Origin: a virus
IMG/VR virus record: IMGVR_UViG_3300042868_012479
Span: 1 to 64,000 of that record
Reading direction: 5' to 3' (one strand)
DNA: 64,000 bases
The position numbers and the translations under genes are program-made. Shown piece by piece: positions 3,564-63,664 of the stretch. Numbering within the stretch: the first letter of the stretch is position 1; every line of letters begins with the position of its first letter. Under the pieces are notes generated by a model. The model was not told the origin of the DNA. It was given only the letters and a program-made list of their open reading frames with translations, and ran no database searches.

Positions 3564-3633
3564 ACTGCCTCCTACTACATCCTTACTCCAAGTGGAGTGG
3601 TACTACCTTACAACCTAGCGACAGACAAGTCAA
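3564..3633 (-). promoter_or_regulatory. Early module: promoter, hairpin, RBS
   Basis: TTGACT-17-TAAGGT; hairpin CTCCACTTGGAG; GTAGTAGGAGG. Confidence 0.8.
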
Positions 3634-18006: not shown

Positions 18007-18219
18007 ATGGAAGTCGCACTATTTATTGGCGGAACACTTTTTGGGGTTCTTATCGGCTCGGTAGCTGGGTTTGGTTCGGCCATGCCAAGGATTGAACAAG
18101 CCCGGCAAGAAGGGTTCATGATGGCATTTGCAAACTTTGCTGAAGCAGCTCAAAAGGCTATGGAAGAGCAGAAGACAAAGGGCGCCGGATTCACCTCAAG
18201 CCACAAGAAGACAAACTAA
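18007..18219 (+). CDS. Small membrane-anchored protein
   Basis: GAGGAG RBS; N-terminal TM. Confidence 0.7.
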   Translation: MEVALFIGGTLFGVLIGSVAGFGSAMPRIEQARQEGFMMAFANFAEAAQKAMEEQKTKGAGFTSSHKKTN

Positions 18220-20892: not shown

Positions 20893-21764
20893 ATATCCTC
20901 ATTACCGGACACCGTGGATTTGTTGGCAGGCATTTTCAGAAGTTTTACGAAGAGCAGGGGCACACCATTCTTGGGGTAGACATCGTTGACTCAATGGACG
21001 TGCGAAAATTCTTTAGCCTGGCAAACCACACAAAGTTTGATCTGGTAATTCATCTTGCTGCAGTCGTTGGCGGCCGGGCGAAGATTGAGGGGCATCCGCT
21101 ATCGGTTGCCGTTGATCTTTCTATTGATGCAGAGATGTGGCAGTGGGCCATTAGGACGAAGCAGCCACGAGTTGTGTACTTCTCCTCATCGGCAGCCTAC
21201 CCAATAAAGCTTCAAACAAAGCAGTCGCATAAGAAGCTTAGCGAGTCAGACATTAACCTTAACGACATCAGCAACCCAGACCTGACCTACGGCTGGTCAA
21301 AGCTTACAGGGGAATACCTGGCGCAATTCGCGGAGGCAGAGGGCGTGCGCACGCACGTATTCCGACCGTTCTCCGGCTACGGCGAGGATCAGGCGCTTGA
21401 TTACCCATTCCCATCATTTATCCAGCGAGGGAAGAATCGAGATAACCCGTTTGTGATTTGGGGCGACGGAACGCAAACGCGGGATTTTGTGCATATTAGC
21501 GACATAGTTCGGTGCGTTGACGCAGCCGTAAAGCAAGATTATGTCGGGCCCTTAAACATCGGCACTGGTCACCCGACAAGCTTCCAGCAGCTTGGAGAAA
21601 TGGTGGCTAAGGCAGAGGGCTATTTCCCCAAGTTCCAATTCCTCACCGACAAGCCCGAAGGGGTGAATTGGCGGGTGGCCGACATATCCTCTATGCTGAA
21701 GCTATACACGCCAAAGATTGACCTTGAAACAGGGATCAAGCGCGCACTTAGCGCAAGGGAGTAG
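20889..21764 (+). CDS. NAD-dependent nucleotide-sugar epimerase/dehydratase
   Basis: ITGHRGFVG, HLAAVVGG, SSSAAY, YGWSK, WGDGTQTRDF. Confidence 0.92.
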   Translation: MNILITGHRGFVGRHFQKFYEEQGHTILGVDIVDSMDVRKFFSLANHTKFDLVIHLAAVVGGRAKIEGHPLSVAVDLSIDAEMWQWAIRTKQPRVVYFSSSAAYPIKLQTKQSHKKLSESDINLNDISNPDLTYGWSKLTGEYLAQFAEAEGVRTHVFRPFSGYGEDQALDYPFPSFIQRGKNRDNPFVIWGDGTQTRDFVHISDIVRCVDAAVKQDYVGPLNIGTGHPTSFQQLGEMVAKAEGYFPKFQFLTDKPEGVNWRVADISSMLKLYTPKIDLETGIKRALSARE

Positions 21765-23486: not shown

Positions 23487-23822
23487 ATGATAGAAAAAAT
23501 TGAAGACGTCTTGTACGCTGACGGGTGGGAAGAGTGCCTTGTTGGGCACGGCACAATCTTTCATGGAAGCGACGGGCCGAAAACCGTAGCCATCTATGAC
23601 CGAGACAAGATGGTCAGGAAGATGGCCCAAGAGATTATTGAGCAGGAGCAGAGCCGCGACCAAGATCAGGCAGAAGACTTTGACCCGTACCTTGAGGCTG
23701 ACGAATACATCTCGTTCAATGTAGAGGGGGCATTCATTCAGCCCGGAATGCCGGTATTTGCCACATTTGACGAGCAGGTAGATTTTACTAAGGTAGCTAC
23801 ATGCGAATGCGGGAAATGCTAA
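23487..23822 (+). CDS. Conserved phage protein (ADG...AxYD...EYxxFNxxGA family)
   Basis: YADGWEECLVG, AIYDRDKM, EYISFNVEGA. Confidence 0.8.
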   Translation: MIEKIEDVLYADGWEECLVGHGTIFHGSDGPKTVAIYDRDKMVRKMAQEIIEQEQSRDQDQAEDFDPYLEADEYISFNVEGAFIQPGMPVFATFDEQVDFTKVATCECGKC

Positions 23823-24802
23823 CAAAGATTATTGCGGCCATCGCAGTGATGGCAATGGCAACGCCCCCAGTCACGCAGCAGGATGTTGTTTTTTCCGGAG
23901 AGGACAACTGGGGTCTTGATCGAATCTATCAACCGCAAGGTGACGCCTGGATTGGCGGCAGGCTTTTCCGCAGCGATGGTTTTGATTGGGCCGGAGAGGG
24001 CTATGGTGGCGGCATTGTTGTATATGTTGTTGATAGTGGCATAAACAATGACCAGCTGTTCAATGACGTGGGCGCCGGTTTTGCCGCAGTAGGCAAATCT
24101 ACGGCAGACTGCGGAAATCTACATGGCACAAAGGTCGCCTCTCTCATTGCTGGAATTGGCTACGGGATTGCCGAGCAGGCAACAATTATTCCGGTGCGTG
24201 TGCTGAAGTGCAACGGGGCAGGAACGCAAAGCGCCATAGTTGCCGGACTAAAGTGGATATTAGCGAATGCAGACCCCACAGTATCCGTGGTTAACATCAG
24301 CGCTGGCGGATCAAAAAATAAGGCCATCGACGCCGCTGTAAAGAAGTTAACTAATGCCGGAATACCCGTAGTGATTGCCGCCGGGAACAACGGGTCCAAC
24401 GTAAACCGCTACAGCCCAGCCCGGGTAAGCTGCACGGAAGACCTTGCAATCTCTGTTGGCGCATCAACACTTTTTGACCTGCCCTGGACAGGTTCAAATT
24501 ATGGCGACTGCCTAACCCTTTATGCCCCAGGGGTCAGCCTGGTTGCATCCTATGGTGCAGGGGACACAAATGTAAACGGAACTTCGTTCTCTGCCCCATA
24601 TGTCTCTGGGGCAATTGCTGCCTACGCATCCTTTTACGGGATTTCAACGGAAGACGCTTTCTATGAAATGGCAAGCTACTTTGATCCGTCAATCACCATC
24701 GCGGCCCGAAGGGACACCACCAGCTCGGTCCTGCAAATGTTCCCCATTGAAGATGATTGGTCTGGCGATTATTGCTGGGAGTATTACGGTTGCTGGCCTT
24801 AA
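23816..24802 (+). CDS. Secreted S8 subtilisin-like serine protease
   Basis: Signal peptide; WGLDRI; catalytic VVDSG, HGTKVAS, GTSFSAP; oxyanion AAGN. Confidence 0.92.
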   Translation: MLTKIIAAIAVMAMATPPVTQQDVVFSGEDNWGLDRIYQPQGDAWIGGRLFRSDGFDWAGEGYGGGIVVYVVDSGINNDQLFNDVGAGFAAVGKSTADCGNLHGTKVASLIAGIGYGIAEQATIIPVRVLKCNGAGTQSAIVAGLKWILANADPTVSVVNISAGGSKNKAIDAAVKKLTNAGIPVVIAAGNNGSNVNRYSPARVSCTEDLAISVGASTLFDLPWTGSNYGDCLTLYAPGVSLVASYGAGDTNVNGTSFSAPYVSGAIAAYASFYGISTEDAFYEMASYFDPSITIAARRDTTSSVLQMFPIEDDWSGDYCWEYYGCWP

Positions 24803-26229
24803 TACCTTCGGGCAGAAGTAAAGTAAAAGCCAGATCCGCCAAGATCAGAAGCGTAAACAAGCGCATCAACCAAGTCGTCATGAGAGCCGTTTGGGAATGC
24901 CATCATTTCGGCCTCAAGCTCATCAATGCCCGGAGCATTGCTTACGTGGAAAACCTTCCCCCCCTCATACCGTGCCGCAAGCGCCCGTGAGCGCGTCACC
25001 TTATCGCGGTCCGGTCGAACGGGTCGGGCAGGCAGGGTAGTTGCTGAGAGCATTTCTCGCACAAAAGTGCTTTGGTGCTGCACAGCTTCAATGTTTAACG
25101 ACTCAAAAAATCGAGGATCTTCAGACTCCGGGTCAAGCCCCTTGATGGCCAAGAGGCGCTGTGGCCAGCCCATGCGTGGGCCACGTGCGTCATTGATGCT
25201 TCCGTCGTTGTTGAAGCCGGTAAGCCAAGCACGATGGCCCTCAGTCAGCCGGGCCTTCCAGGCCCCAACGATGTAAAGGTTATGCTCAGAATCCTCAACT
25301 ACCTCTACTGCGGAGGTGTAGTCGCTTCGTTCGCTAGCTGAGGATGCAAGGTCAACGCCAATGCGCCTAGCGCCTTCTGGGACGCGGTCAACCCGCTTAA
25401 ACCACTCGTATCGGAAGATGTTCCCGCCCATCGATGTAACGTCATTCTGAAACTGCAACATAAAGATTGGCGTGCCAAGCTCCATGCGTTTCTGCTCCAT
25501 GTCGGCGACCGTGTACATTTCAGGCCAAAGGACTTTGTCCTCCTCAAGGGCTCGGCGCTGATAGTGGGCTACATGCTTGGCGATTAGTTCGGCGTAGAAA
25601 TCATCCTCGTGCCAACGGGTTCCGATGTACCAGCGTTTTGATTTTGGCACAAGCATTGGGTCAACAACTTGCCAATACGTGTCGCTAGCTTTCTGCCGCT
25701 GCATGGCGGTGGCATTTTCCTTCATGCCAACCATGTCGTCCGCAAACAAGATGTCAAGACGCGCGCCAGGCTTGATTGATCCAAGGCCGTCGGCGAAACA
25801 TGTTGAGTCTTTGCCAAGGTTTGCTCCCTTTACCGTCCAAACTTCATCAGTCCACTTTGAACCAATAACGCCATCTTGTGCCCACGGAAAGATTTCAGCA
25901 AAATGCGGGGACTCAATGAGAGATTTAATTGCCCTGGATCGAGCAAGCGCGTCAGACATGACGGCAGTAAGAACCCCAATGCGCACTTTTCCTTTGGTTA
26001 CCCCAATCATCCGAGCAGCCCGGTGGATAAGCTGAGTAGTCTTTGCGTGGCCGCGAGGCATCAAAACAAGACCACGGTCGTTCTGGTCAAGGAACTGTTC
26101 CATTTCTCGCAAGTGGCGAGGAAAGACCAGGCCGCTCATATACTCGGCAAACGCAGCATCCGATGTTTGCGCCTTGACGCGCAACCATTCCCGATAGCTA
26201 TTGTTAACGCTCTTCGGCTGTTCCATCAA
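24799..26229 (-). CDS. terL: Terminase large subunit
   Basis: Walker A MPRGHAKTT; ILFADD; IGTRWHEDD; nuclease IGVDLA and HDDLVDAL. Confidence 0.95.
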   Translation of the reverse strand: MMEQPKSVNNSYREWLRVKAQTSDAAFAEYMSGLVFPRHLREMEQFLDQNDRGLVLMPRGHAKTTQLIHRAARMIGVTKGKVRIGVLTAVMSDALARSRAIKSLIESPHFAEIFPWAQDGVIGSKWTDEVWTVKGANLGKDSTCFADGLGSIKPGARLDILFADDMVGMKENATAMQRQKASDTYWQVVDPMLVPKSKRWYIGTRWHEDDFYAELIAKHVAHYQRRALEEDKVLWPEMYTVADMEQKRMELGTPIFMLQFQNDVTSMGGNIFRYEWFKRVDRVPEGARRIGVDLASSASERSDYTSAVEVVEDSEHNLYIVGAWKARLTEGHRAWLTGFNNDGSINDARGPRMGWPQRLLAIKGLDPESEDPRFFESLNIEAVQHQSTFVREMLSATTLPARPVRPDRDKVTRSRALAARYEGGKVFHVSNAPGIDELEAEMMAFPNGSHDDLVDALVYASDLGGSGFYFTSARRY

Positions 26230-37115: not shown

Positions 37116-40100
37116 TTAAGGGGTATCCTCCGCGCTAATAGCCGGCGATCCGGAGACGTTTAGGTCTCGAGTGACATATAGCCAAGCGCTATTGTCAGTT
37201 GTGTTGGCGTAGTTATTTGGAAGGTATGTGTAGTCGCCACGACGGATTCCGCCAGCAGCGTCTTTAGTAATGGCCCGAACTCGATACTGGTAACGATACT
37301 TGTAAGAGGCGCTGCTGTCAGTATAGGTGTTATTTACAACTGCCTGGTTATCCGATGTGAGCAAGTCGCCCCACCCGGTCTTGGCGGTCTTGACAACCTC
37401 ATACCAAGAGAATACAAGGTTGGTCGGGGCATTGGCCTTTGTCTTGCTAATAGCTGTAATTGGAAGGCTAGATCCGGCGTATATTTGGAATGTAACAGTA
37501 GTCAAATTAGACGCCTTGCTAACAGACTGAATTTCCCACGTGCCGTTTAGTGAGCCATTCTTTTCACCAGTAATTTTCCAGCCCGTAACGGTAATAAATG
37601 TATTTTCGCTAATCGCAAGGTTCCCAGCGAAGACAACCGACACAGTAGAGATCCCCCCAACTGCTGCTGCGGTCCGGCTAACGGCTGTGCCGGTTTTCCT
37701 GAGATATGCTCGAGACTTTACTGACTGCTGCAGCTCCTCGCGGCGGCGTTGAACTTCAAAGTTAGTAAAAAGCTTGTTCCGTGGGTCATTTCGATCAAAA
37801 ACCCAACGAAGCACAATGCTGAGATCAGCGGTTGTTGGCTTGCCATCAACGTCAATAGTGTTAGCAACAAGGTTGTTAATTGGGCTTGGCTTTGTAAACT
37901 GAAGCTGTCCTGGCCCAAGGCTTTGCGTAATCTCATCGCGCTGCACGAGAATGATTGCATCTTTTGTAAAAGCAGGCTCACTTCCAAGCGTTACCTGATA
38001 GTAAATTTCCCCGCCAAGAATTTCTGTTTGCTGGGATTTTACAACAATGGGTTCCGCGATCCCGGCCTGAGACCAAAGGTACGGGATAACGCTACCGGTT
38101 GTCAGACGCCCATCCGAGGCATGGGTAGGGTGAGAAAACTCAAAAGATTGCAGTTTTTTTCCAGATGAGGAAAATTGAGTTGCGGCAGCAAGGACTGCAT
38201 CTTCTTGAGTTTCAACTGCGGTGTTCACGGTGCTCGACTCAATGATTTTTCCGTGCGTTTGCCAAACTCCCTGAACGTAGTCAAACGTGTACCGAATGAC
38301 TTGGCCGGTAACCACGTCTGCAGTTAGAAGGTCGCCGCTTGCATCTTTCGTGATTGCTTTTGCGTATACATGCACACGGTTAGTGACGCTGCCAGCTTGT
38401 GAAATGTTTCCCGGGGACTCGAATGGCTTCAGCGGAATGACGCTAGTGAGGGCCGTGTCAAACATGTATTCAGCAGTTGAACCGGGTGCAACACCGTAGT
38501 CTGCAAATCCAAACTCGCCAGTAATTTTAGTGACAAATGGGTTTGCCCAGAAGTCTGTGTAAGACTGTGCTGCGTGTTCAAATATAAGCGCAGCTTGAGT
38601 GATTCCGGCCGTGCTAGGAACTGTGCACATCCCCCACATTTTCTCCCAAACATTAGCAGAAGACAGGGCGCCACCAATGGTGACATCAGAGCCAACCTGA
38701 GTTCCGCCAGCATCGTAGAATCGAATTTTTAGCCGAGGGTGAGCAGCATTTGTTGACTTTATCGTTGCGGATGCCCATAGTATTTCGCTAGCAGAAACGT
38801 CAAATTTTTTAGATTGAGCACGTTTTACCGTGGCGCCAGTTGCAGTCAAAGAGTATCCATAGCCGTAAGGCCCGCCCGTTCGTGAAGTTAGCGTAAAGCT
38901 ATTCAATGTCCAGCCGGTTGTGCCGGCGTTACCAAACGAGTCCTCAAAAACTGAGTTAGATACGTAATTTTTTACTTCTCGCAATTTATAATGCAAATTC
39001 TTCTCTGCATCAACCCAATACTGGCATCCTGTTTTCTTTGCAAGGTAGTCCAGCGCTTGCCGCAGGGTCATTCCGTTAAACGGCTCCTTTAGCTTGCTGG
39101 CCGCAGACTTCCCAGGAAGGTTTGCAAGGTATCGGTAGTCGTTATCCTCGTTGAGAAGGTCGCCACGGGTGTACCAGTGGGCCATCCACGCAACGAGCTG
39201 CTCTCGCTCGGTGTCGCCAAGGGCCCGGTCAAAGATAAAGATATCTCCAATCAAGCCGTCAAAGAAGTGCCTAGGGGTACTTGAGCCGTAGCCATATCCA
39301 ATGGTGAAATTTTCATGCCCAGTATCGGCTGGAGTTACCGCAGCCAGTTGCTTTACCACTGTCTCGTCATTCTTTTGAAACGTTAAATCGCCAGTGGCAT
39401 GGTCGTAAGAAAAGTATATAATGGCGGTCTCTCCGGCGGCTACAGAAATACCAGAGTTGATACCTGCACTGCTATTTGTGGTCTGTGTGTCAAAGTAAAC
39501 AATATTTCCACTTGCGTTAAGCTTGAGCTCTTTTCGCCCCGGGGATGAGCCGCTAAGGCTTCCATGATGCCAAATTGTTTTGAAGTCTCCAGAGAGCGTA
39601 GCTGGCCGGATTAGGCATGCAATCGTTGTGCTCTTTGCCATAGACCTAAACCCAATGCCGTGCCCGACTGCAGTCCCGGTGGCGGCCCCGGATGCAGTGG
39701 GCAAGCCAGCACCAGTAAAGTCCAGAGAAAATGTCAATGCAGTGGCTGCGGTAATCGTTCGGGCCGTGTCGTTGTAGGTCCCAACTGATGTGAGCTTTAG
39801 GACTACGCTTTCTCCGATAGCAAAACCATGGGCGTGGCTTGTTGTAAGAGTCAAGATCCCAGAAGTGCCATTCATAGAAAGGGCCGTAACGTCAGCAAGC
39901 CTACTTGAGGAAAGTCCTTGATACTTAGATGCGGTGAATGACACGGCTTGCCGTCCGCCAATATAGGTAAGCGTGTCGTCAGGCATGGTGACAAATGTTG
40001 CGCTCGGGGTTGCGGCGGCTCGGCCGGCGCCTGCGCTTGCGGGCCAGGCGTAGTTAAACGTTGTGATGATCGCAGACTGCCCAATTGTTTGTGGCCCATC

Positions 40101-42188
40101 GCTATCATCAGTTCGGCTGTCGGCAAACTGTACATACGAGTACCCAGCGCTGCTAAGCGCCATTGTCGAAGCCCCGCGTTGCGCCTTGGTAAGCGGAGAC
40201 CAGTTGTTCAGGTTGGTATTTGTTCCATTTTTGGCGTATACAGGGTATATTCCGCCCCTAAGCTCAGTGATAGTTAGTCCCGTTCCGCCCAATCCGCTAT
40301 AGGGGCCTGAGATTGATACGTTAACGATGTCGCCAACCTTAAATGGGTGAGTTGCCTTTTTAGTGCGGGAGTTATATGCAAGGCTCCACGGGGTAGTCTG
40401 CGCCCCAACGCCAATCTCTACCAGGTTGCTCTTTCGGTACGCGGAGTAGACGTGAAATGGGTTGGAGGCGCTAGCCGCCCCGTCACCAACCTGGGTGACC
40501 ACAAATTTGCCGTTATAAGAGCCCGAACCAGAAACATGTATGACGTCATTGATGTCAAACCAGCCAGCCGGGCCATTGTGCCAGAGCGTAGTGACGCCGT
40601 TCACTCGCTTTCCGGCAATGATTTTGTACTTCTGGGCATGAGCCTGAACAAATTGAGTTTGCGCCACTTCGACGTACGAAACGTACGCATACCCACCGGA
40701 TGTCCATGTGTTTGTCGATGAGTTTTTGATTTTAAAAGTAGTTGGCGTCGCTTCTTCTATGATTGAGTATGCAATGTTTAGTGTTCCGGAAGAGCCAGAT
40801 TGGGTAATACCATAAATGCCAACTGGGTCTCCCGCAAAGAACGTATTCGCTGCGGTGTATGTTGCGTACGTGCCGTCTGTAGACACACCTGTAATTGCCC
40901 CACTTGACCTGATGGCAAATCCAGGGTCAACCGGCGTGTATGCTCGCACGTTTGTTGCGCCGGTTGTAGCAACCCGGAAACCAGAGCTGTATGTGCCAGG
41001 GTTGTTGTACTCAATATTTCCCAAAGAGACAACCTGCCCGTCAGAGAGGCTGTGGTCTCCAATGGTTGTAAAGTCGATGTAGTCAGACGTTGAGTTGTAG
41101 GCCCCAACCGAGCGAACGATGTATCGCTCAACAATCTCGCTATCAACTCGGGCAACACGAAGATCTTTCCGTGCGTCCATCGCCCTTGGGTCAAACGAGC
41201 TTCGCCCCGACTCGGTCTTTGGGTTTGACAGGGGAATCCAAGACTTTGCGCCCAGCTGTAGCGGGTAGCCGGCGTCAGGCAAATAAGTAATCGGGCTAAA
41301 CCGTTTCTCATTAGTGTTTTCCTCAACATACGTAGTGTAGTTAATGCCAAGGCTGTAGCTTGCATTTGAGTACGGATCGGTTGTCCGGATGTCAGTGAAA
41401 AGAGAGGCGGTGTACGGAGTGCTGCGGCCAGATGACTCATCGGCAACGTTGGTATACGTCAAGGCGGTGTTGTCTGCCGTGTAGCTCACCACCGAGTCAA
41501 CCGAATATACGGTCCAGGTTGAGTTGTAATTGGTGGTTCGATCAATGATTACCTGCTGCCCAACGATTAAATCGTGGGAGTCGTTAAGGGCAACAGTAAT
41601 GCGTCGCTTGCCGGAACCGTTATTCCCATCAGAGATCTTGGTGATTTTAAGGCCGTTCTTCTCCTTGTCGGTTGCATAGCCGCCACGGATGAGCTCATGG
41701 TCCAGGGTGTCGTATGGGGCTTTGTACTGAGTTATTACAACCTCGTCAAGAAGTGCAGTGTAGTCGGAGCACTTTACCTTTGTGATGATTGCGCTACCGG
41801 TACCGCGCCCACCGCCGGTACTTTCTCGGGACACCTGGGTAACAACGCCACCAAAGATCAGTACACCGGCCTCATATACCTCCACCTCTGTCCGGGAGGG
41901 GATGTCCAGCGCATACGTGTGGTCGTCTAGGGCAGCCTGCGCCTTTGCGTCAACATCTGCCCCAGGGTAGGCGGACCAGTCCAATGTTGAGTTTGGGAAC
42001 ATAGTAAAGATAGAAAAATCAAGAGAGGAGAGGGAGCCGTCGGTGCTCTCAGTAAAAGTAAACGACGACGAGCTTCCGTCCATAAACGCCACACGCTTCG
42101 TGATGTCAAGGAACCCATCACCAATAGGGGTATGGCCCAGTAGGCGTGCCTTGATTTTTACTGTGATGGTTCCAGTATAGCTAGCCAT
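37116..42188 (-). CDS. Large tail-tip/hub protein with beta-barrel repeats, LamG-like and CBM-like domains
   Basis: Follows TMP; IFGGVVTQV...KCSDYTALLD; YWVDAEKNLHY; FDGLIGDIFIFDRAL. Confidence 0.8.
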   Translation of the reverse strand: MASYTGTITVKIKARLLGHTPIGDGFLDITKRVAFMDGSSSSFTFTESTDGSLSSLDFSIFTMFPNSTLDWSAYPGADVDAKAQAALDDHTYALDIPSRTEVEVYEAGVLIFGGVVTQVSRESTGGGRGTGSAIITKVKCSDYTALLDEVVITQYKAPYDTLDHELIRGGYATDKEKNGLKITKISDGNNGSGKRRITVALNDSHDLIVGQQVIIDRTTNYNSTWTVYSVDSVVSYTADNTALTYTNVADESSGRSTPYTASLFTDIRTTDPYSNASYSLGINYTTYVEENTNEKRFSPITYLPDAGYPLQLGAKSWIPLSNPKTESGRSSFDPRAMDARKDLRVARVDSEIVERYIVRSVGAYNSTSDYIDFTTIGDHSLSDGQVVSLGNIEYNNPGTYSSGFRVATTGATNVRAYTPVDPGFAIRSSGAITGVSTDGTYATYTAANTFFAGDPVGIYGITQSGSSGTLNIAYSIIEEATPTTFKIKNSSTNTWTSGGYAYVSYVEVAQTQFVQAHAQKYKIIAGKRVNGVTTLWHNGPAGWFDINDVIHVSGSGSYNGKFVVTQVGDGAASASNPFHVYSAYRKSNLVEIGVGAQTTPWSLAYNSRTKKATHPFKVGDIVNVSISGPYSGLGGTGLTITELRGGIYPVYAKNGTNTNLNNWSPLTKAQRGASTMALSSAGYSYVQFADSRTDDSDGPQTIGQSAIITTFNYAWPASAGAGRAAATPSATFVTMPDDTLTYIGGRQAVSFTASKYQGLSSSRLADVTALSMNGTSGILTLTTSHAHGFAIGESVVLKLTSVGTYNDTARTITAATALTFSLDFTGAGLPTASGAATGTAVGHGIGFRSMAKSTTIACLIRPATLSGDFKTIWHHGSLSGSSPGRKELKLNASGNIVYFDTQTTNSSAGINSGISVAAGETAIIYFSYDHATGDLTFQKNDETVVKQLAAVTPADTGHENFTIGYGYGSSTPRHFFDGLIGDIFIFDRALGDTEREQLVAWMAHWYTRGDLLNEDNDYRYLANLPGKSAASKLKEPFNGMTLRQALDYLAKKTGCQYWVDAEKNLHYKLREVKNYVSNSVFEDSFGNAGTTGWTLNSFTLTSRTGGPYGYGYSLTATGATVKRAQSKKFDVSASEILWASATIKSTNAAHPRLKIRFYDAGGTQVGSDVTIGGALSSANVWEKMWGMCTVPSTAGITQAALIFEHAAQSYTDFWANPFVTKITGEFGFADYGVAPGSTAEYMFDTALTSVIPLKPFESPGNISQAGSVTNRVHVYAKAITKDASGDLLTADVVTGQVIRYTFDYVQGVWQTHGKIIESSTVNTAVETQEDAVLAAATQFSSSGKKLQSFEFSHPTHASDGRLTTGSVIPYLWSQAGIAEPIVVKSQQTEILGGEIYYQVTLGSEPAFTKDAIILVQRDEITQSLGPGQLQFTKPSPINNLVANTIDVDGKPTTADLSIVLRWVFDRNDPRNKLFTNFEVQRRREELQQSVKSRAYLRKTGTAVSRTAAAVGGISTVSVVFAGNLAISENTFITVTGWKITGEKNGSLNGTWEIQSVSKASNLTTVTFQIYAGSSLPITAISKTKANAPTNLVFSWYEVVKTAKTGWGDLLTSDNQAVVNNTYTDSSASYKYRYQYRVRAITKDAAGGIRRGDYTYLPNNYANTTDNSAWLYVTRDLNVSGSPAISAEDTP

Positions 42189-42191
42189 GTA

Positions 42192-45100
42192 TTACCTCGG
42201 CCGTGCGTAGCCCATGGCCCGAAGTGATCGGGTCTGAGCTGCTGCAACTTTTTCAGCCAGCCGGTCGATGTCGGCTGCAGAGTTTAGCTGCGGATTATTG
42301 ATAACAACGGAGGCGCTGATTGTACCACTGCCACCACCGATTGACATGCTCCCAGGGCCACGTAGTTTGTGGTTTGGAACGATGCTGCCAAGGTTGGATG
42401 GAACCATAATCTCTGGCCCACGCTCGCCCACAAGGTAGGCGTTGCCAGGGAAGACAGAGCCGCCAAGGGCTCGGGCACCAGTAACATTTTGATACAGCTT
42501 CTTGTCAACGTTAAAGATTCCCTTGCCGCCGGCCATGACAAAGCCTTGGGTTTGCTTCTGGAACTTGTTTTGCATCATGTTTGTGTAGATCCAATCACCA
42601 ATAAACCCGCCAATCAAGCTGCCAACCCAACCGCCAACAAACGGAATAGGCAACAAGCCGCCAAGGAATTCGCCAACTCCTGATCCAAGCATGCCAACCA
42701 TCGTTCGATCAACGCTTCCCCCGCCAAGAAGGGTTGCGGCAATGCCAGCAAATTTTGCAAGGCTGCCGCCAATTCCAGGAAGCATCGTCAGAAGATTCAT
42801 GAATACGGACGATCCAAGGGTTGCAATATTGAGGTTTCCGGTAGCCCACATCGTTGCTATGTCGGCGACAATGCCCGCAATTCCTTGAGCCTTCTTGGAC
42901 GCGCCAAACTTCAGGTCCATGCTCTTAAGCTTAGAGTTTGCTTTTGGCAGGGATGCAGGAGCGCCTGGAACTCGCCATCCTTCTGCGGCGGCAAGGTTGT
43001 CAACAAGTTTTTGAGCTTTCTTTGGATTTACTGCCTCTTGGTCTAAATTATCGAGGCGAGTATTTGGAAGAACTCCATTCTGCCTTGCAAATCGAACGAA
43101 TGCCTCCGCATATGTTTCATGAGGGAAGGTATTGTATGAGCTTGTGGCCGATTTCAGGAAATTAAACGAGCCAGCAGCTCTAATAACTTTCCCGGCTGAT
43201 CCAAGCATATTTCCAAGCATATTTCCCTTAGTTCCGGGGCGATTTCGTGGATTCCTCATGTCGACAATATGGCCGATTTCGTGAACCAGCGTTTCCATCA
43301 TTCCAGACTTTGCATCATTAAGCTTTTCACTTCGGAAAAGAGGGTCCAAACTTTGCAGCCTTGCCTCGGAGCCTTTCCTTACTGGCCTTGTGGCCATAGC
43401 AATTTGATCAGGGCCAAACTGTCGAGTATAGGCATTTCCGGCAACACCCCATCCCAGCGTGTATTTTTCATCGTTAAGGAAATCGATAACAAAATTTGGC
43501 TTAAAGTCTTCCGGTGCAATCTTCAATACATTTCGAACAAGTTCGTCAATTTCTGGAACAGAGAAAGGCAAGCGTACTCCGTCATCAACTTTAATTTTTC
43601 CCCATGGAAATTCATACATTGTTGAAGCAACTGGAGTTTTTCGAAGAGGAAGCTCAAGATTTAGGAAATCAAGAAGCTTGCCTTGCTGCGTCATCTTTGC
43701 TGGCTGACGAGTGCCGCCATCTTCCAGCCAGCTATAATCAGTGCCAGTGCCATCAGCAAATCCGCCCATGATTGGGCCGGAGCCAGGTCGGGCCTTCTTG
43801 TTGTTTCCCTTGCCGGTTCCAGGATTAGTGTAAGAACGAATCATTTCTTTGATTTCTTGCATGCGGTTGAGCCGGTCAGTGTAGCTATTTACCGCCACTT
43901 CATCCCAAATTCTGCTATACCCCCCGATGGAATGTCCCCCATATGAACCATCTTTAGCCCAGTACTTGTCAAAATTTTTCGGGTGGGGTGGGTATGCTAA
44001 CCAATTTTGATGACTCGCTCTGCGAGATCGAGTAAACCGCATAGCCTTGTCGACAACATCTGTGTCAAAAACCAAGCCTCGAAGGATGTCAATAACTGTA
44101 AGCCCGTGATCCATAATTGCTGATTCACTTGCGCGGTCTCTAGCGGATGTTGTGCCCATTCGCAGGTTTGCTGCGTGCAATGCATTGCTGCGCTCTACGT
44201 CAGCAACCATATCCATGTTCTGAAATTGTTTAGCCCACTCTAAATACTGCTCGTTTTCTGAGCGATCTTTCTGGTCAGGAAGTAAAGCTGTTTTTCGAGC
44301 ATATTCTGCAAGATATGATTGAGGAAGTTTTATTCTATCGTCCAGCCGCAGGCTGGCGATTTTTTCTTTAAGCGGATGGCCGGCATTAACAAACCAAGAT
44401 TTTGCAAGCCCAATAGCATCAGAAACCAAAGGAATTTCAAAATAATCTCTGTTGTATGGAGCTAGCGCTATGTTAAACTCTGGGAAATACGTTGGCCAAG
44501 TTGCGGCCCAGCGGCGATCTCTCTCCGCCCACGGGTTTACCCTATCGGAGTCATCCATGCGGACCCGCGAGGCCCCCGGTGTGCCTGCGGCAAATCCGCG
44601 CATGCGGCCCGTCTTTCCGGCCATAAGGGCGCCGGCTGAGGACTTGAGGTAGGTAGGAAGCATGTGGTTAGGGACAATGTCGAGTTGGCCGCTTCCGCCA
44701 ACGCTGAGCATCTCTGGGCCACGCTCGCCGACCATGTACTTGCCACCGGGAACAATTGATCCACCGGCTGCCTTATTTGCGTTTGGCAGGGTGATATTAG
44801 TAAGGAGCGCGGCGATCTGGTAAAGGATAGCGTCAACGTTTGTATCAAGGCCAGAGAGAAGCAAAGAATTTTGTTCTGGGCCAACAAGACCCTTCAGCTG
44901 TGCTTCTAGCCTTTGGATTTCCATTCGTGCCAGTACGCCGGCTGCGGAAACGGCTGGGCCGTATTTCTTTTTTGCAGCCGGGTCGGTTTCAAGCTCGACG
45001 AGCTTGGCCTGAATTTGCTGCTGCTTAACTCGCAAGGAAGCAAGCTTGCCTGTAATTGCATCCTCGACCCTTTGGGTCGGAACGTACGTTTGCTTTGGCT

Positions 45101-54289: not shown

Positions 54290-55153
54290 TTAGGCTGCAA
54301 TCGACACAATCTGCGCCGTGCTGGAATCATACTGCAGGTTGAACTCAAGATCAACCTTGATGATGTCCTCTCGTGTGAACGGAATGTTGTGCTGGTAAAT
54401 GCACGCCTTATAGGCCGTAATGGCCACCGTCTGCGAGGGGTCGTCCGAGCGGGTGTGCGTGAATTCAGCGCGAACCGGCCGGTTGCGAAGCATTGACAAG
54501 TCCAGTGGGTTGACAGCCGCCGTACCAAAGTTAAGGCTTTCGCGGAAGTTCAACGTGCCTGGGTAAATAGAGGTGCTTGCGTTGTTTGACGCAGTAACGC
54601 TAAACAAACGCTGGAATCGCATCGGGTCCATCTCAAGGCCGCGAACACGGATGGTTGACTTACCACCAAAGTGGGCTTTGGCAATTGGGAAGTTGTACTG
54701 GCCAGAGAACTCACGCTCCTGGAAGGTAATCTCGAACTCGACGTCGCCGCCGATTTCTCCGATGTCCTGCATACCCTTGTACTGCGCAAGATCAGCGCCT
54801 GCCGGGTCGGCAAGGGATGTAACGCTAAGAGTTGTAGTACCGGCGCCTACAGATCCCTGAAGCCAGTCGTAGTTATTTACAGTTCCAACATAGACGTCAT
54901 AGCCCGAAGTTGCGCCCGTGAGGGCCGTCCAGGAGACATCAAGCTTTCCGGTAGCGCTTAGGACGACGATGTACGTCGCCGAAGGGCTGGCGACGCCAGC
55001 GGCGTTCTTTCCGGCGACACGTACATAGTACGTGCCGGCCGGAACTGAACCGCTAGCAGTAGAGGGGGTCACAGACACGCCGGACACCTGTGTATACAGG
55101 CCGCCGCTGAGCCATGTTCCGAGCTTAAGACGACCGCTTCCGAGAGTAAACAT
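54290..55153 (-). CDS. Tail tube protein paralogue 2 with Ig/FN3-like insert
   Basis: Shares TLGSG, GExGGDVEFxIxFQEREF, HxRSDDPS, PFTREDI with 55177 gene. Confidence 0.75.
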   Translation of the reverse strand: MFTLGSGRLKLGTWLSGGLYTQVSGVSVTPSTASGSVPAGTYYVRVAGKNAAGVASPSATYIVVLSATGKLDVSWTALTGATSGYDVYVGTVNNYDWLQGSVGAGTTTLSVTSLADPAGADLAQYKGMQDIGEIGGDVEFEITFQEREFSGQYNFPIAKAHFGGKSTIRVRGLEMDPMRFQRLFSVTASNNASTSIYPGTLNFRESLNFGTAAVNPLDLSMLRNRPVRAEFTHTRSDDPSQTVAITAYKACIYQHNIPFTREDIIKVDLEFNLQYDSSTAQIVSIAA

Positions 55154-58531: not shown

Positions 58532-58861
58532 TTACCTTTCAACAATCCAGGCCTCAACCAACAGATGATGCTTCAAAGATTCCTCGTTAACAGAAGCAAC
58601 AGTAAACTCGCTGCCGTTGGACAAGAGCGTGTCGTTGACCTGTGGCCGGTCTGAGCCGGAAACATACGGTATCCAAAATTTAAACACCGATTTGGCTGTT
58701 CGCCCAGCTGGGCTTGGCTGATCGTTGCCATAAGCCTGCTGATAATGGCCCTTCTTTGTCCAGACCAGAGTGTTAACAATGACTGGTGAGCCCATAGAAT
58801 CTTGCGACACTTGGCCTTTTCTCTGAAGAGAGATTTGACTAATGAAACCAGGGAGGCTCAT
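58532..58861 (-). CDS. Head closure / head-tail joining protein
   Basis: Size and synteny; QDSMGSP; beta-rich. Confidence 0.7.
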   Translation of the reverse strand: MSLPGFISQISLQRKGQVSQDSMGSPVIVNTLVWTKKGHYQQAYGNDQPSPAGRTAKSVFKFWIPYVSGSDRPQVNDTLLSNGSEFTVASVNEESLKHHLLVEAWIVER

Positions 58862-59790
58862 CGAATTGCCGTCCGGATGTAGGCATCAAGCATCAACGTA
58901 GCTGCAAGCGGGATAGATGCAAGTGGGTCTCGTTTGCTTCGGGTTCCTCCCGCACCGGACTGGTCTGCGTAAATTTCCATCTCGCCCACGCGGAGGCGGC
59001 TAATCCCCTGAAGTCCTTGCTTTGCCACATTGTCCTTGGCAAGAAGGTCTATTGTAATCAGCGCAGCAGCGTCCTTAATGTCCTGGGGAATTAGGACGTT
59101 TCCATGCCTGTAGGTAATTTCCGCAACGGGCTCAATCATTCCCAGAGCAACAATTGCAGGGAATAGTGAGTACGTTACATTGGCAAGACTGGTGATTTCA
59201 ACGTAGCCACGGTCGTCATTAATAAAAATGTCATTAACGGTAAACGCAGCGGACTGGAGCGCGCTAACGTAAATCCTAACCGACTCAACGCTCACAATCC
59301 CTTTATGCCGAGGGTAAATGCGCCGAGTTGCCTGGTCCCACTTGTGCCGCTCAACGGACCTGCGGTGGTCAAATGAATACCCAACATACGAGTCAATCAT
59401 CGAGCTGGCCATTTTTACAACTGCCCGAATCTTCTGATCGCTAACTTCGGTTCCATCTGGAAGGGAAAGGTCTCCAAGCTCGTACTCTCTAAACTCTGAA
59501 ACCGTTAGATACCCCTCAACTCTGCCAATAATGTTAGAGCTCCAGGCACCGTTTGCCCCAGAGCCAGAGTTATTTAGCCTATATGCGTAATAGTGAGTTA
59601 AGTCTCCCTCTGCGTCGCTATAGGTATAGGACGACACATTGGCCACAAGGGAAACATACCCGAGAAGCTCCCAGGTACCAGACTTTGCCGTAGCATCGGT
59701 CTCATTATCTGCCCGGCCAACCTGAATGCGGTTGTACGTGCTGATATCCGAGATAATGCCTGGAACCGAGAGCGTTACAAGACTGGCCAT
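58858..59790 (-). CDS. Head-tail adaptor with N-terminal FN3-like domain
   Basis: YLTVSEF...ASSMIDSYVG...IPQDIKDAA; N-terminal YTYSD...YYAYR. Confidence 0.75.
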   Translation of the reverse strand: MASLVTLSVPGIISDISTYNRIQVGRADNETDATAKSGTWELLGYVSLVANVSSYTYSDAEGDLTHYYAYRLNNSGSGANGAWSSNIIGRVEGYLTVSEFREYELGDLSLPDGTEVSDQKIRAVVKMASSMIDSYVGYSFDHRRSVERHKWDQATRRIYPRHKGIVSVESVRIYVSALQSAAFTVNDIFINDDRGYVEITSLANVTYSLFPAIVALGMIEPVAEITYRHGNVLIPQDIKDAAALITIDLLAKDNVAKQGLQGISRLRVGEMEIYADQSGAGGTRSKRDPLASIPLAATLMLDAYIRTAIR

Positions 59791-60445: not shown

Positions 60446-61675
60446 TTAGATCGAAACGCGGATCTTCCCGTTGAACTGCGGAGCCTTGTTCGCAAGACCA
60501 AACATGCAGTACATGATGTACAGGCGTGAAAGCGAGCCGTTCACACCAACTGGAATCTCGAGCGTGGTGATCGAGTCCGAACCAAGGTACGGCATCGACC
60601 AGACCGACTCGTCCACGACATACATGTCGCGGTAAGCTACCGAGCTATAGGTATACGTCCCGATTGCGGTGCCAGGGATAGCCAGGAGCGGAAGCTCGCC
60701 AGCAGCCGTGACAACGGAACCAAGAGCAAGACCCGCTACTTCGCTTGAGCGGCTCGCGCCGTTGTAGCGAACAAGGTTCGTGACTTCGTTGACCAAACCA
60801 GCGTAGTCGGTTGGGTTCAAAGCGATTGCCGAAGGATTGCCACCGGCGCTAAGGATATCAGCAACGTTGTTGTTGATAACGCTTAGGTAGGAAGCAGTTC
60901 CCTTGTTGGCAATCTGAGCCTGAGCAGCAGTTGCGCCAAGGAGCTTGCGGAGACCATCGAATCCGTTCGCATCGTATGCGCCGAATTCAGTGGCCGCGCC
61001 AGCGCCCGAGGTGACTGTTGAGTTACCCTGGAAGAGAGTCTTCTGGAGCTTGTTTGCGATGGCAGTGACGCCACCCTCAAGCTCGGTCGAAAGGCCCTGC
61101 TGCCCCGGAGCGCCGCCCTGGGTAATCGCAAACTGCGACTTCAGGGTGATACCACGGCGGGTTGCCAAGACGGACACGTTGGTCGTCTGGCGCGCATAGG
61201 TGTTTACATCGTCTGTAACGGTGCCGGTCTCCGTCTGGAAGACTGCATCGCCATAGGCCGACTGCTGGTTGAACGCATGCACGAGGCCGTTTGCTGGCTC
61301 CTTGCGAAGGCGGTCAAACATTGGGAACTTCTTTACGAAAAGAGCGTAAAGAATTGGCTCAAGATCCTGGCGGATAAGCGCTGCGCCACCGCTGGCATCA
61401 AGAAGCTTGGCAATGTTCGGGTTCGCAACCGCAAGGCGGTTAAGAACGTCGGACGAAGCCTGCTTGCCCGTCTCGCGGGTAGCCTGGATGTCAAGCATTT
61501 CGCCAAGTTCCGAGCGATTCATCTTCGTGAACTTCTTGCGAAGCTCGCGCTGAGTCGCATAGGCCTCGGCGACGTCGATATTTTCGTCAGCAACACGGCC
61601 GACGAGGTGAGGGGCGGTGCCAAGGGCATCAAGGCCCTTCTGCACTTCCTGCAGTTTCTCGTTAATTTCACTCAT
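60446..61675 (-). CDS. Major capsid protein (HK97 fold)
   Basis: Follows protease; AGGAG RBS at MSEINEK; ALIRQDLEP, TLFQGN, FDGLRK; terminator downstream. Confidence 0.88.
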   Translation of the reverse strand: MSEINEKLQEVQKGLDALGTAPHLVGRVADENIDVAEAYATQRELRKKFTKMNRSELGEMLDIQATRETGKQASSDVLNRLAVANPNIAKLLDASGGAALIRQDLEPILYALFVKKFPMFDRLRKEPANGLVHAFNQQSAYGDAVFQTETGTVTDDVNTYARQTTNVSVLATRRGITLKSQFAITQGGAPGQQGLSTELEGGVTAIANKLQKTLFQGNSTVTSGAGAATEFGAYDANGFDGLRKLLGATAAQAQIANKGTASYLSVINNNVADILSAGGNPSAIALNPTDYAGLVNEVTNLVRYNGASRSSEVAGLALGSVVTAAGELPLLAIPGTAIGTYTYSSVAYRDMYVVDESVWSMPYLGSDSITTLEIPVGVNGSLSRLYIMYCMFGLANKAPQFNGKIRVSI

Positions 61676-61680
61676 GATTT

Positions 61681-63474
61681 TTACTCCTGGTTGTCCAGCA
61701 TGCGCTGGATGACGGGCGAAAGCCAAGGGGCATTCGTCCCGGAATTGTTTGCAGCAACAGAATACGACTTGCGGCCCGATGGAAGATCCATCAGTCGCCC
61801 GACGACATCAAGTGCCTTAGCGAGGTCAGCCTCGACCGTGGCCTTCTGGCTAAGTAGTTCGGTCAGCTGAGCCTTAACGGCCGCGACCTCCTGCTGAGCC
61901 GCAAAGGCTGCATCCAGTGCAGACTTAGCGATAGCGGTCACCTCATCGATAGCCGAAGCTTCGACAGCAACCTCGGCCTCAGGCTCCACAGGGGCCACAA
62001 CGGGCTCCTCTGCAACCTCAGGCGCAACTTCGGGCTGCGGCTCTTCAGCCACAACCTCAGCTACAGGCTCGCCATCAGAGACGAGCTCAGCAACCTTAGA
62101 AATGATTCGCGCGCGCTCATCAGCGCTGGCGCGAACAAGGACGGCCCCAAGGTCCTGCAGAGCCTGAACGGCCGGATCAACGACCTCTTCAGCGGCAGGC
62201 TCCTCAGCGGCAGGCTCGTCAGCAACTGGCTCAGCGGCCGGCTCCTCGACGACTGGTTCCGCTACGGGCTCAACATCAGACTTGGCTACAGCGGCAGGTG
62301 CCTCTGCGCCTTCGGCCACCATGGCCTCGTTCTCTTCAGCAGGCTTAACCTTTTCCTTGTCATCGCTCTGCGTGACAGTGACGGTAACCCGCGTGGCTTT
62401 TTCAGCTTCCACGATAGTTTCTCCTTCAGCGAGCAAGGAATTAGCGGAACTATCCACATCGACCTTTTGCTCATATCCATCAACAACCCCCGCAGCGTCA
62501 ATTGAAGCTGCTGGCGTAGACTCAATTCCCGAAGGAGTTTCCTCCAAGGAATTATTAGTTTCGGCGGCACCTAGGCTGTCGCCATTGGAATCTTCGAAAA
62601 CAGTAACAACCTGGCCCTCAAAATCTAGAACGCTTTTAAGCGCTTCAATTTTGCGCAAGGTAGAGAATTTGTGCCCAACAAGCCTGTCGCTCGGCGCCCA
62701 CCCTTCGGACCCCTTTCGATAAACCCTAATTAGCGCAGCTGGGTCTTCTGGTGTCCCCGTAATCGTAAAATCAGAGTCAGGCACGTTAATATTGCCGTCT
62801 CGAACAACGCGGGTAATTTTGCCCCGGGCCGTTCCGCCGCTTGAGCCCCAGGCAACAAAATCACCGGTAGATAGACCTTCGGCCTTCTCGTCAACGACAA
62901 TTTCGCCGGAATTCTCTGCAGCCTTTAGGCTCTTGATGGCGTTCTGAAGATACGAACGCTGATTGGCGGGGATCCCGACGACCGACGCCTCCATCAGCTT
63001 GACAGAGTCAATAACGTAGCTATCCTCGCCGGTCTTTGCGTCCTTTCGCTTGGAGACGCGGTCGACGCGAGCGCCAATAGAAAGACCAAGCTTAACGCCA
63101 CGCTTAATTGCCTTAAAGGCACGCATTGCCTCAGGGTTCTCGTCTTCTTTACAGACAAGAACATCGATGTCCAGGTCATATACTTCTTGGCTAGTTTCCG
63201 CATCAAAACGCTTTACAATTCGAGCTTCGGTGACTGAGCCAAAAAGGTCCTCGGGAACGTTGTAATTGTGGTTAAGGAAGATTGTCATATTCTGCCGGGC
63301 TGTCTCTGCCATAGAAGAAATGGCGTTAAGAGTCATCTCGTCGCCGTGAAGGTCACGGATCGTCGAGGAGGTTGTCCCGGTAACGATGAGGTCGCCGTTT
63401 GGGGCCTCGTACGCCTTAAGCGCATTTGTATAAACCTTGAAATCCACAGATACCTCCATGTGATCAGCTGCCAT
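61681..63474 (-). CDS. Prohead protease fused to Tudor-like insert and acidic scaffold
   Basis: RDLHGDEM, FLNHN, GLSIGA, LMEASVVGIPAN; E/P/A-rich C-terminus; start may be GTG 63447. Confidence 0.88.
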   Translation of the reverse strand: MAADHMEVSVDFKVYTNALKAYEAPNGDLIVTGTTSSTIRDLHGDEMTLNAISSMAETARQNMTIFLNHNYNVPEDLFGSVTEARIVKRFDAETSQEVYDLDIDVLVCKEDENPEAMRAFKAIKRGVKLGLSIGARVDRVSKRKDAKTGEDSYVIDSVKLMEASVVGIPANQRSYLQNAIKSLKAAENSGEIVVDEKAEGLSTGDFVAWGSSGGTARGKITRVVRDGNINVPDSDFTITGTPEDPAALIRVYRKGSEGWAPSDRLVGHKFSTLRKIEALKSVLDFEGQVVTVFEDSNGDSLGAAETNNSLEETPSGIESTPAASIDAAGVVDGYEQKVDVDSSANSLLAEGETIVEAEKATRVTVTVTQSDDKEKVKPAEENEAMVAEGAEAPAAVAKSDVEPVAEPVVEEPAAEPVADEPAAEEPAAEEVVDPAVQALQDLGAVLVRASADERARIISKVAELVSDGEPVAEVVAEEPQPEVAPEVAEEPVVAPVEPEAEVAVEASAIDEVTAIAKSALDAAFAAQQEVAAVKAQLTELLSQKATVEADLAKALDVVGRLMDLPSGRKSYSVAANNSGTNAPWLSPVIQRMLDNQE

Positions 63475-63664
63475 CTTGTGGCCGCCCTGGCTATCAGTCA
63501 ACCATATACTAATCTTTACGAGCACTATATGGTGCCGATAAATTGACCCCGTTGTGGTAGATGATTAACAGATATTAACCACAAAAACAAAGCTGCGGAC
63601 AATACGTGGATATTCTACGTCAATGTTGCCTCTTGGCAGCTTGACGGTTTGCTATGATGCCAGC

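Follow-up and report, generated by a model that had tools for sequence, protein, structure and literature searches.

A giant tape measure protein of an uncultivated freshwater phage with a ParB-type domain and metallopeptidase-like modules on a conserved scaffold

Results

A tape measure protein of 3824 residues

The window analyzed in this study is a stretch of 64,000 nucleotides, the first 64 kb of the 82.5-kb IMG/VR viral contig IMGVR_UViG_3300042868_012479 (completeness rating 94%), and our subject is the open reading frame (ORF) of 3824 amino acids (aa) at positions 42192..53666 of its minus strand. The ORF begins with GTG and runs without an internal stop and without a cysteine; the consensus N-terminus of its relatives, MAE, agrees with this start. 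On its sequence matches and its gene order the product is a genuine tape measure protein (TMP), and it carries a ddrB-like ParB domain and two modules with HExxH motifs in regions that vary between relatives. An earlier note, written from the letters of this DNA, had read the ORF as a TMP that doubles as an injected carrier of effector domains.

When aa 1-3000 were compared by tblastn with 50,697 phage records, 34 records matched (best E 3e-9). Among the best 30 of these 34 all matches fell on aa 1584-2069, 29 of them in genes annotated as TMPs and one in an unannotated record, which agrees with the earlier proposal that the TMP core begins only near aa 1600. The protein also matches phrog_9959 (E 3.5e-4) and, in two stretches, phrog_30701, and TIGR02675 aligns to aa 1702-1745 with E 0.0025, under its cut-off. 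Megablast of the gene against the phage records gave no match, and phmmer of the whole protein against PDB sequences returned only low-complexity or chance rows (E >= 0.032).

The genes immediately upstream also bear on its identity. The 97-aa G-like tail assembly chaperone gene (53949..54242, minus strand; phrog_2115 tail protein, E 5.1e-05) contains a slippery heptamer, G GGA AAA, at 53970-53964, 18 bases ahead of its stop codon. From this heptamer the -1 frame is open to 53680 and ends 14 bases before the GTG of the 3824-aa ORF, giving a T-like frameshift extension, as read from the sequence, at 53680..53985 of the minus strand. An overlapping chaperone pair with a -1 frameshift is the classic arrangement of tail chaperones. 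In Arthrobacter phage DrManhattan the annotated order is identical, with a major tail protein followed by a joined chaperone pair and the TMP. Because of the frameshift chaperone pair upstream and the same order in DrManhattan, we place the ORF in the tape measure position, as had been claimed before. The matching core of the 744-aa DrManhattan TMP starts ~145 aa from its N-terminus, which means that the window protein has ~1550 extra residues before the usual beginning of a TMP.

One scaffold with three variable slots

A word-indexed search returned 23 proteins of 2162-5523 aa, one of which is the window's own cluster on 3 contigs; in precomputed Pfam annotations TMP_3 is assigned to 15 of the 23, ddrB-ParB to six and PI3_PI4_kinase to three. 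Scanning viral contigs with the core gave 78 loci, the longest complete ORFs of which span 1030-5597 aa. Relatives were mapped by phmmer, as blastp dropped a ~1400-residue N-terminal match to two of them, P0004 and P0005, which share aa 1-1500 with the window protein at ~70% identity (phmmer and representative search). When the window protein was mapped on the ORFs of 100 relatives, 99 matched, all on one scaffold. The survey of related TMPs for variable cargo that the earlier note had proposed thus reveals a conserved scaffold with variable slots.

All features of the chain lie on the minus strand. The N-terminal conserved segment (aa 1-140, 53247..53666) is present in 29 of the 99 matching relatives, all of which have long N-terminal extensions. 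The conserved TMP core (aa ~1540-2100, 47367..49049) is matched over aa 1551-2100 by 93-99 of the 99 and includes hydrophobic segments at aa 1960-2055. A conserved charged segment, presumably a coiled coil to judge from its composition, occupies aa ~2570-2960 (44787..45959); ~60 ORFs match aa ~2570-2850 and ~40 match aa ~2950-3050. A terminal motif is present twice, first as GERGPE at aa 2980 (44532..44774) and again as GERGPE at aa 3747 together with the conserved C-terminus (42195..42479), with aa ~3730-3824 matched by 62-67 ORFs. Between these parts are three slots. Seventeen ORFs share the ParB part of slot A (aa ~140-1500), and only four share aa 800-1350 at phmmer sensitivity. Slot B (aa ~2100-2550) is variable and includes a hydrophobic segment of membrane-type composition at aa 2316-2364 (46575..46721). 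In slot C (aa ~3050-3700) no ORF matches aa 3101-3450. Besides those in the core and in slot B, a further membrane-type segment is found at aa 3667-3689. Cysteine is avoided in giant TMPs generally, being absent from 48 of 58 complete non-redundant relatives as it is from the window chain.

Closest to the window protein is L002, with 81% identity in the core and 60% over aa 1-3029. Its layout is the same and its chain is 593 aa shorter; it has 172 aa in place of the 749 aa of slot C in the window, yet the same 45 residues form its C-terminal end. Slot C is therefore internal and not a fused downstream gene, because L002 without this cargo keeps the same C-terminal residues. TMPs of 1537-1926 aa have at most one copy of the motif GExGPE (12 of 14 have one, 72-79 aa from the end), whereas in TMPs with slot C cargo another copy lies 320-1520 aa farther upstream. 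From this we conclude that slot C was inserted and that the two copies of the terminal motif enclose it.

Among 58 complete non-redundant ORFs, HExxH was found in none of the 20 under 2900 aa as compared with 32 of the 38 at or above this length. In slot A of two relatives the ddrB-ParB domain is replaced by a PI3/PI4-kinase match above the cut-off of 27.1 (L039, 29.2 bits, at about 3302-3439; L018, 34.3 bits, at about 3140-3277), which spans only ~45 residues of the catalytic region. Pfam scans of 12 relatives found TMP_3 in 11, ddrB-ParB in two and nothing else, which indicates that most cargo is invisible to Pfam. This locus and its 78 relatives suggest that lake phages make wide use of the TMP route, with modules that can be exchanged.

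A ParB domain and a conserved HExxH module in slot A

The ddrB-like ParB domain (PF18763) lies at aa 232-309 (52740..52973; Pfam E 2.6e-10), with a score of 40.9 bits against a cut-off of 27.6, and spans positions 19-87 of the 121 in the profile. A six-frame search of the genome found it as the sole copy (45.9 bits). The domain predicted earlier is therefore present, over a narrower extent than the aa 220-480 then assigned to it. The motifs QPRxR, LEEG and SGN[GA]R occur in all nine aligned ParB-bearing sequences (the window and 8 relatives), and the conserved Arg in SGN[GA]R or QPRxR is a candidate for the active-site arginine of the ParB/Srx type.

The ParB domain is followed by a helical domain at aa ~310-700 (51567..52739; predicted local distance difference test, pLDDT, 70-86 over aa ~390-700). 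The AlphaFold model of the N-terminal part (1191 residues, mean pLDDT 56.1) is nearly all helical and is confident at aa ~390-700 and ~1120-1310; its helices are short and packed and do not form one long coil. In BFVD this model has three matches at E <= 0.001, all named 'DdrB-like domain-containing protein' from uncultured phages (best 1.8e-10); the next rows, at E 0.0019-0.097, include a SNF2-type ATPase, a DNA methylase, a MuF C-terminal protein and a 'large polyvalent protein associated domain'. In the model, then, the ParB and helical domains together resemble free-standing DdrB-like phage proteins. Foldseek of the same model against PDB gave nothing at E <= 0.001 and only generic helical repeats, and the profile of the N-terminal cargo gave nothing meaningful against PDB. 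At E <= 1 Pfam added to ddrB-ParB only a weak MnmE_helical match.

A Pro-rich linker at aa ~700-725 (51492..51569) and a Gly-rich linker at aa ~1355-1410 (49437..49604) are present as described earlier. The former contains four of the eight Pro-Pro positions of the protein and three more lie just before the latter, at aa 1331-1349, so that seven of eight fall in the two linkers flanking the first HExxH module. This module covers aa 730-1330 (49677..51479), and its HEISH is located at aa 1023-1027 (50586-50600), confirming the earlier placement of this motif and, as discussed below, of HEIGH at aa 3462. Two HExxH motifs are not expected by chance in a chain with 26 His residues, as 20,000 shuffles of the protein gave a mean of 0.008 and a probability of 5e-5 for two or more. 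In a 17-row alignment T1020, H1023, E1024 and H1027 are invariant, and in giant relatives bearing this type of motif, T-x-x-HE-x-x-H is located 410-590 aa ahead of the core. A search of 1.84 billion representatives with aa 730-1330 gave three matches, namely the protein itself and two close relatives. Its protein-language neighbors in the Atlas all belong to zincin families (M85, M26, M35, Tox-MPTase3, M27 and M91; 0.87-0.91), which share few features with it and serve as leads only. We conclude that the first HExxH module is a conserved and probably metal-binding module with an unproven zincin fold.

A gluzincin module in slot C

Slot C contains a Trp-rich part (aa 3060-3335, 43662..44489) that has a low-confidence model and no relatives in our set. 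It is followed by the module of interest at aa 3336-3563 (42978..43661), with HEIGH at aa 3462-3466 (43269-43283) and a likely third zinc ligand at Glu 3517 within ETYAEAF, and then by a Gly-rich hydrophobic segment at aa ~3590-3700 (42567..42899). Twelve slot C modules could be aligned (21-28% identical to that of the window), in which W3355, G3356, F3388, H3462, E3463, G3465 and H3466 are invariant and E3517 and A3520 nearly so. The profile built from slot C matched 23 distinct PDB sequences at E <= 10 (best E 0.0066), and all 23 are anthrax lethal factor, Zmp1/Pro-Pro endopeptidases or an ATLF-like protein, with the alignment running through HExGH and the E-x-[YF]-A-E-x-F helix.

The AlphaFold model of slot C (541 residues, mean pLDDT 52.9) is confident over aa ~3345-3570, with blocks up to 95, and is made up of a hairpin, further strands, the HExxH helix and the Glu helix. 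For this model the top Foldseek rows, although uncounted, belong to collagenase, LTA4H and lethal factor. In a VIA-align comparison with 48,161 chains four reached Z >= 8, and zincins dominate the rows: ERAP1 (Z 8.8, rmsd 3.7, 151 aligned), aminopeptidase N (Z 8.8), lugdulysin (Z 8.0), PPEP-3 (Z 6.8), PPEP-2 (Z 6.7), Wss1 (Z 6.2), thermolysin (Z 6.1) and lethal factor (Z 6.0). Because motif, profile and predicted fold agree, we call the slot C module a gluzincin with M34-type motifs and a candidate M34/ATLF-like peptidase. The Pfam family ATLF (PF07737) has no match at E < 1 in the window protein; ATLF was seen in 12% of one Atlas cluster, which is a lead only. The earlier expectation of two zincin folds consequently holds for slot C, by motif, profile and model, and not for the first HExxH module, for which the fold was not recovered.

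In a tblastn search of aa 3001-3824 against the phage records 60 matched, and the best 25 of these 60 all fell within aa ~3594-3768, none of them on the zincin or the Trp-rich part. No stand-alone relative of the slot C zincin (165-527 aa) was found at E <= 0.001 among 951 candidates, and the A2 profile matched none of the proteins of 948-2705 aa, a weak result. The module profiles A1 and A2 detected no free-standing copy beside the TMPs among 5002 ORFs of at least 80 aa from the window and the 78 loci, the sole exception being one marginal match (E 9.2e-4).

Neighboring genes

The 3824-aa ORF is encoded among late virion genes for protease, capsid, adaptor, chaperone and fiber that flank it. 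Upstream on the minus strand are genes for a prohead protease (61681-63525, 614 aa, Peptidase_S78 E 3.2e-06), an HK97-type capsid protein (60446-61726, with a Pfam SU10_MCP match and no match of the protein in the phage records), a head-tail adaptor (58858-59790) and a probable major tail (tube) protein of 287 aa (54290..55153), which is named by its position upstream of the chaperones and had no supporting family match in PHROG and Pfam scans. The prohead protease is far longer than usual and has a weak Hva1_TUDOR match just under the cut-off. The SU10-type capsid match had prompted us to consider a podovirus internal protein, a possibility that we rejected on account of the frameshift chaperone pair and the TMP core.

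Downstream of the TMP gene are a 1690-aa gene and then a 963-aa gene with a fiber-type C-terminus. The former (37116-42188, minus strand), placed right after the TMP, is presumably the tail tip or hub; it has no PHROG match at E <= 0.001 and in Pfam only a sub-threshold E1_FCCH match (18.2 bits against a cut-off of 29.5). Scans of the window genes revealed no gene for a sheath. Farther away, a subtilase gene (23801-24802, plus strand, Peptidase_S8 E 6.4e-24) abuts the gene for the terminase large subunit (24799-26229, minus strand). The plus strand also carries a gene for an NAD-dependent sugar epimerase/dehydratase (20889-21764, E 1.7e-33) and a weak Anp1-type glycosyltransferase match (18219-19016), which together with the epimerase possibly serves sugar modification.

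Occurrence in metagenomes

The stretch occurs in lake and freshwater metagenomes, with 24 runs listed, and in four of them at least half of the sampled words are found. A single 19.9-kb contig of run X1, which is possibly the source, spans the whole stretch. In run X4, from a different sample, contigs cover 30 of 30 bins and 24 of the 31 contigs are at >= 99%. In relatives from other samples, too, one uninterrupted frame extends over 3200-5600 aa.

In runs X5 and X7, contigs of 95-99% relatives enter unlike sequence at 44567-44572 (about aa 3032), and X5 contigs do so also at 42948 (about aa 3573); these borders are where homology to P0003-P0005 stops, which is a weak hint of strain-level cassette exchange. 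Neither run has contig cover at 43233-44465, which is no evidence by itself. A second X1 contig, of 2424 letters, matches the window only at 42400-42420 and 44710-44738, with 1071 other letters between, and is probably from a co-occurring relative with a shorter slot C cassette.

Discussion

Starting from the identity of this gene, its domain content, its modular variation among relatives and the genuineness of its sequence, we consider it reasonably probable that the TMP of this uncultivated, freshwater, siphovirus-type phage is a conserved scaffold with inserted enzyme modules and is ejected through the tail. The scaffold would consist of the N-terminal segment, the TMP core with its membrane-type segments, the charged helical segment and the terminal motif. 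Slot A would hold the DdrB-like ParB and helical domains followed by the conserved HExxH module, and slot C a lethal-factor/Pro-Pro-endopeptidase-like gluzincin with the Gly-rich hydrophobic segment, closed by the second terminal motif. By this model the chain is stored in the tail tube and would leave through the tip on infection with its C-terminus first. The slot C protease would then emerge first, with a site of action in the cell envelope such as has been suggested for the C-terminal piece of the T5 TMP (pb2C), and the hydrophobic segments would form the channel. Last to leave, adjacent to the leading end of the DNA, would be the N-terminal ParB and HExxH part; its place of action would be at the cytoplasm or inside it, by analogy with the proposal for the RNA polymerase fused to the TMP of Thermus phage P23-45. 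Candidate roles for the ParB domain are holding or protecting the DNA end, nuclease action and a nucleotide-dependent switch. In the window the order of scaffold with first motif, zincin, Gly-rich hydrophobic segment and second motif parallels T5, and the duplicated terminal motif may represent two successive docking ends. Since the C-terminal zincin sits where T5 pb2 has its muralytic peptidase, a role in the envelope appears at least as likely as one in cargo release.

Several observations weigh against this reading of a TMP with delivered enzyme modules. The window protein itself (P0001) has no match to Pfam TMP_3 (PF20155) at E < 1, a family that is reached by 11 of the 12 relatives scanned. 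The ParB part of the AlphaFold model has pLDDT < 50. For the first HExxH module, a zincin fold was recovered neither in the AlphaFold model nor by Foldseek against PDB nor by hhalign: the model is helical around HEISH (pLDDT ~50-64) and shows no zincin fold, hhalign to the slot C profile covers a 20-column motif helix only (33% probability), and a candidate third ligand, a His ~55 residues downstream in distant relatives, is absent from the window and its closest relative. The statistics of the slot C zincin are modest, as the best profile match has E 0.0066 and Foldseek against PDB counted none at E <= 0.001 (best 1.0e-03), and a best VIA-align Z of 7-8 is common by chance where a model has no true match. 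Nor is it obvious how folded domains of 200-600 aa would fit in the tail lumen. Finally, ejection and order of exit, like the targets and any cleavage, are argued by analogy with other phages.

The earlier note had instead favored a self-processing anti-defence polyprotein, in which the protein's own zincins would cleave at the linkers and release the ParB cargo within the cell, as has been proposed for the polyvalent MPTase, and this we regard as conceivable but rather doubtful. Its premise that the modules are hallmarks of polyvalent proteins stands for ddrB-ParB and for at least one zincin, both of which are hubs of the polyvalent network, and MPTase-mediated processing has been predicted there (Iyer et al. 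2017, PMC5512222); it does not stand for the polyvalent MPTase family, since neither MPTase-PolyVal nor LPD families match the window protein at E < 1, although the BFVD neighbors at E 0.0019-0.097 do include polyvalent-associated names. The location of the first HExxH motif at the junction of cargo and scaffold, at a fixed 410-590 aa before the core in the giant relatives carrying it, would suit such processing, as would the Pro-Pro endopeptidases among the nearest solved kin of the slot C zincin and the seven of eight Pro-Pro positions in the flanking linkers. The total of eight, however, equals the expectation from composition (~8), and only the clustering is notable, which is natural for Pro-rich linkers. 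Moreover, the P23-45 enzyme stays in a full-size TMP in virions (PMC10770324), and the function of DdrB is itself only a prediction in the text of PMC5512222.

An explanation that we hold to be improbable is that the whole chain is a ruler for a tail of ~570 nm (0.15 nm per residue), that the zincin opens the wall, and that the other modules have no role after ejection. The earlier note had remarked that a chain serving wholly as ruler would give a tail of more than 500 nm; taken as an objection this fails, because the 5002-aa TMP of P23-45 goes with an extraordinarily long tail (PMC10770324). In favor of a ruler, the corresponding C-terminal site of T5 pb2 bears a muralytic metallopeptidase motif, and the N-terminal model is almost wholly helical; the modelled helices are nevertheless short and packed. 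A ruler also leaves unexplained the ddrB-ParB domain, which with its motifs in nine of nine aligned carriers has no known ruler or muralytic role, and the kinase-like module of relatives, which is not a ruler feature. Slot content, moreover, differs between close relatives while the scaffold is constant, as in L002 with its 81% identical core and 172 aa against 749 aa.

We think it equally unlikely that the N-terminal extension is removed before or during tail assembly and acts as an assembly factor or is packed in the head. There are precedents, as P1 DdrB is processed and incorporated in the head (PMC5512222) and the TMPs of lambda and T5 are cleaved in morphogenesis (PMC10038345), and the HExxH module is placed just before the scaffold. 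Yet the sole studied TMP with an N-terminal enzyme is full-size in the virion (PMC10770324), and aa 1-140 stay conserved where the cargo of the TMPs differs, which suggests that the N-terminus has a fixed structural role in the particle or its assembly.

An artefact in this metagenomic contig, with separate genes fused by chimeric assembly or by an overlooked stop or frameshift, is very unlikely because the X1 contig spans the stretch, independent X4 contigs cover all its bins and relatives from other samples keep the single frame, and it is further opposed by the internal position of slot C shown by the L002 C-terminus. The X1 contig that joins 42420 to 44710 does so through matches of no more than 21-29 letters, located at the repeated motif, and is thus consistent with a relative bearing a different cassette.

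Returning to the reading of ejected enzyme modules on a scaffold, a broader and quite tentative possibility is that the TMPs of this widespread freshwater group are a general platform for delivery through the tail lumen, with three slots that exchange enzymes between strains, the duplicated terminal motif as the recombination and docking handle of the first-out cassette and the Pro-Pro-rich linkers as sites cut by the protease within the chain. The enzymes in question would be a ParB-type nuclease or NTPase, a PI3/PI4-kinase-like module and lethal-factor/Pro-Pro-endopeptidase-like proteases. If true, such a platform would be the phage counterpart of polymorphic toxins and of those specialized spike proteins of the type VI secretion system to which effector domains are fused. 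Enzymes delivered together with the DNA of a phage act ahead of its gene expression and so decide whether infection starts. Since near-identical scaffolds occur both with and without cargo, the family is also a natural series for two questions, namely whether tail length reflects the inserted enzyme modules and how a large protein can be stored and then refold once it has passed through a tube of 4 nm. In addition, it establishes lethal-factor-like zincins borne by TMPs as a branch of their own and the first HExxH module as an orphan.

Comparison with known systems

The tail of P23-45 is ~800 nm long. In this phage the TMP, gp96, has 5002 aa with a virion RNA polymerase at the N-terminus, and virions contain this polymerase within the full-size protein; the authors' model is one of delivery through the tail with the DNA, with the enzyme working at the channel as DNA enters (Chaban et al. 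2024, PMC10770324); a TMP delivering an N-terminal enzyme is thus already published. Like the window protein, gp96 is a giant TMP of a long-tailed phage (~84 kb), is without cysteine, and has a similar design, in which an N-terminal enzyme part of ~1200-1500 aa is followed by membrane and metallopeptidase domains. The cargo differs, being an RNA polymerase in P23-45 and ParB plus zincin in the window, and gp96 lacks both HExxH and the GExGPE motif. Cassette variation is not described in the sections of PMC10770324 that were covered. Neither phmmer nor the family profile finds a match between gp96 and the window family at E <= 10, so that the likeness is one of design only and suggests independent inventions.

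TMPs with muralytic motifs are textbook knowledge. In T5, the TMP pb2 is metastable in the tube and expelled through the tip; it is cleaved between the hydrophobic stretch and the metallopeptidase motif, and the C-terminal piece, which stays in the tip, is proposed to be expelled first into the periplasm, after which the new C-terminus of the remainder docks in the opened hub and the hydrophobic stretch enters the membrane (Linares et al. 2023, PMC10038345). The window protein shares with pb2 a peptidase near the C-terminus, beside a hydrophobic stretch and followed by tip-seated C-terminal residues, the comparison being one of layout between chains of 3824 and 1219 aa. In T5 the hydrophobic stretch precedes the peptidase, whereas in the window the Gly-rich hydrophobic segment follows the zincin. 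Unlike in pb2, the terminal motif of the window is duplicated and the nearest kin of its peptidase are protein-cleaving enzymes of the M34 type.

With M34-type gluzincins the slot C module has in common HExGH and a Glu in an E-x-[YF]-A-[ED]-x-F helix ~50 residues later, and its predicted fold resembles PPEP-3, PPEP-2 and lethal factor at 12-15% identity in the structural alignments. The catalytic domains of M1 aminopeptidases score above the M34 type (Z 8.8). The module has marks of its own, namely a conserved FxWGD strand, an AAPxGMF motif and its embedding in a TMP.

Polyvalent proteins of phages and conjugative elements likewise bring ddrB-ParB and zincin-type peptidases together in a single, very large polypeptide whose gene is among those of the virion, with domain sets that vary between relatives, and DNase or NTP-dependent activity is predicted for their DdrB-like domains (PMC5512222). 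The window protein has ddrB-ParB and a zincin module in one polypeptide, its zincins being of a type other than the polyvalent MPTase or of unknown type. The virion carriers named for polyvalent proteins are MuF and portal, and the main text of PMC5512222, its supplements aside, has no occurrence of 'tape measure'. In our literature search, supplements of PMC5512222 and PMC10770324 likewise aside, we found no description of a TMP with ddrB-ParB, of a lethal-factor-like zincin in a TMP or of a three-slot cassette design with a duplicated terminal motif. The known carriers are head proteins (MuF, portal and P1 Dar), and a TMP has been shown as the carrier of a cytoplasm-acting enzyme in one group of thermophilic phages; the carrier in the window is a TMP, and this locus would thus link the polyvalent domain set to the tail lumen.

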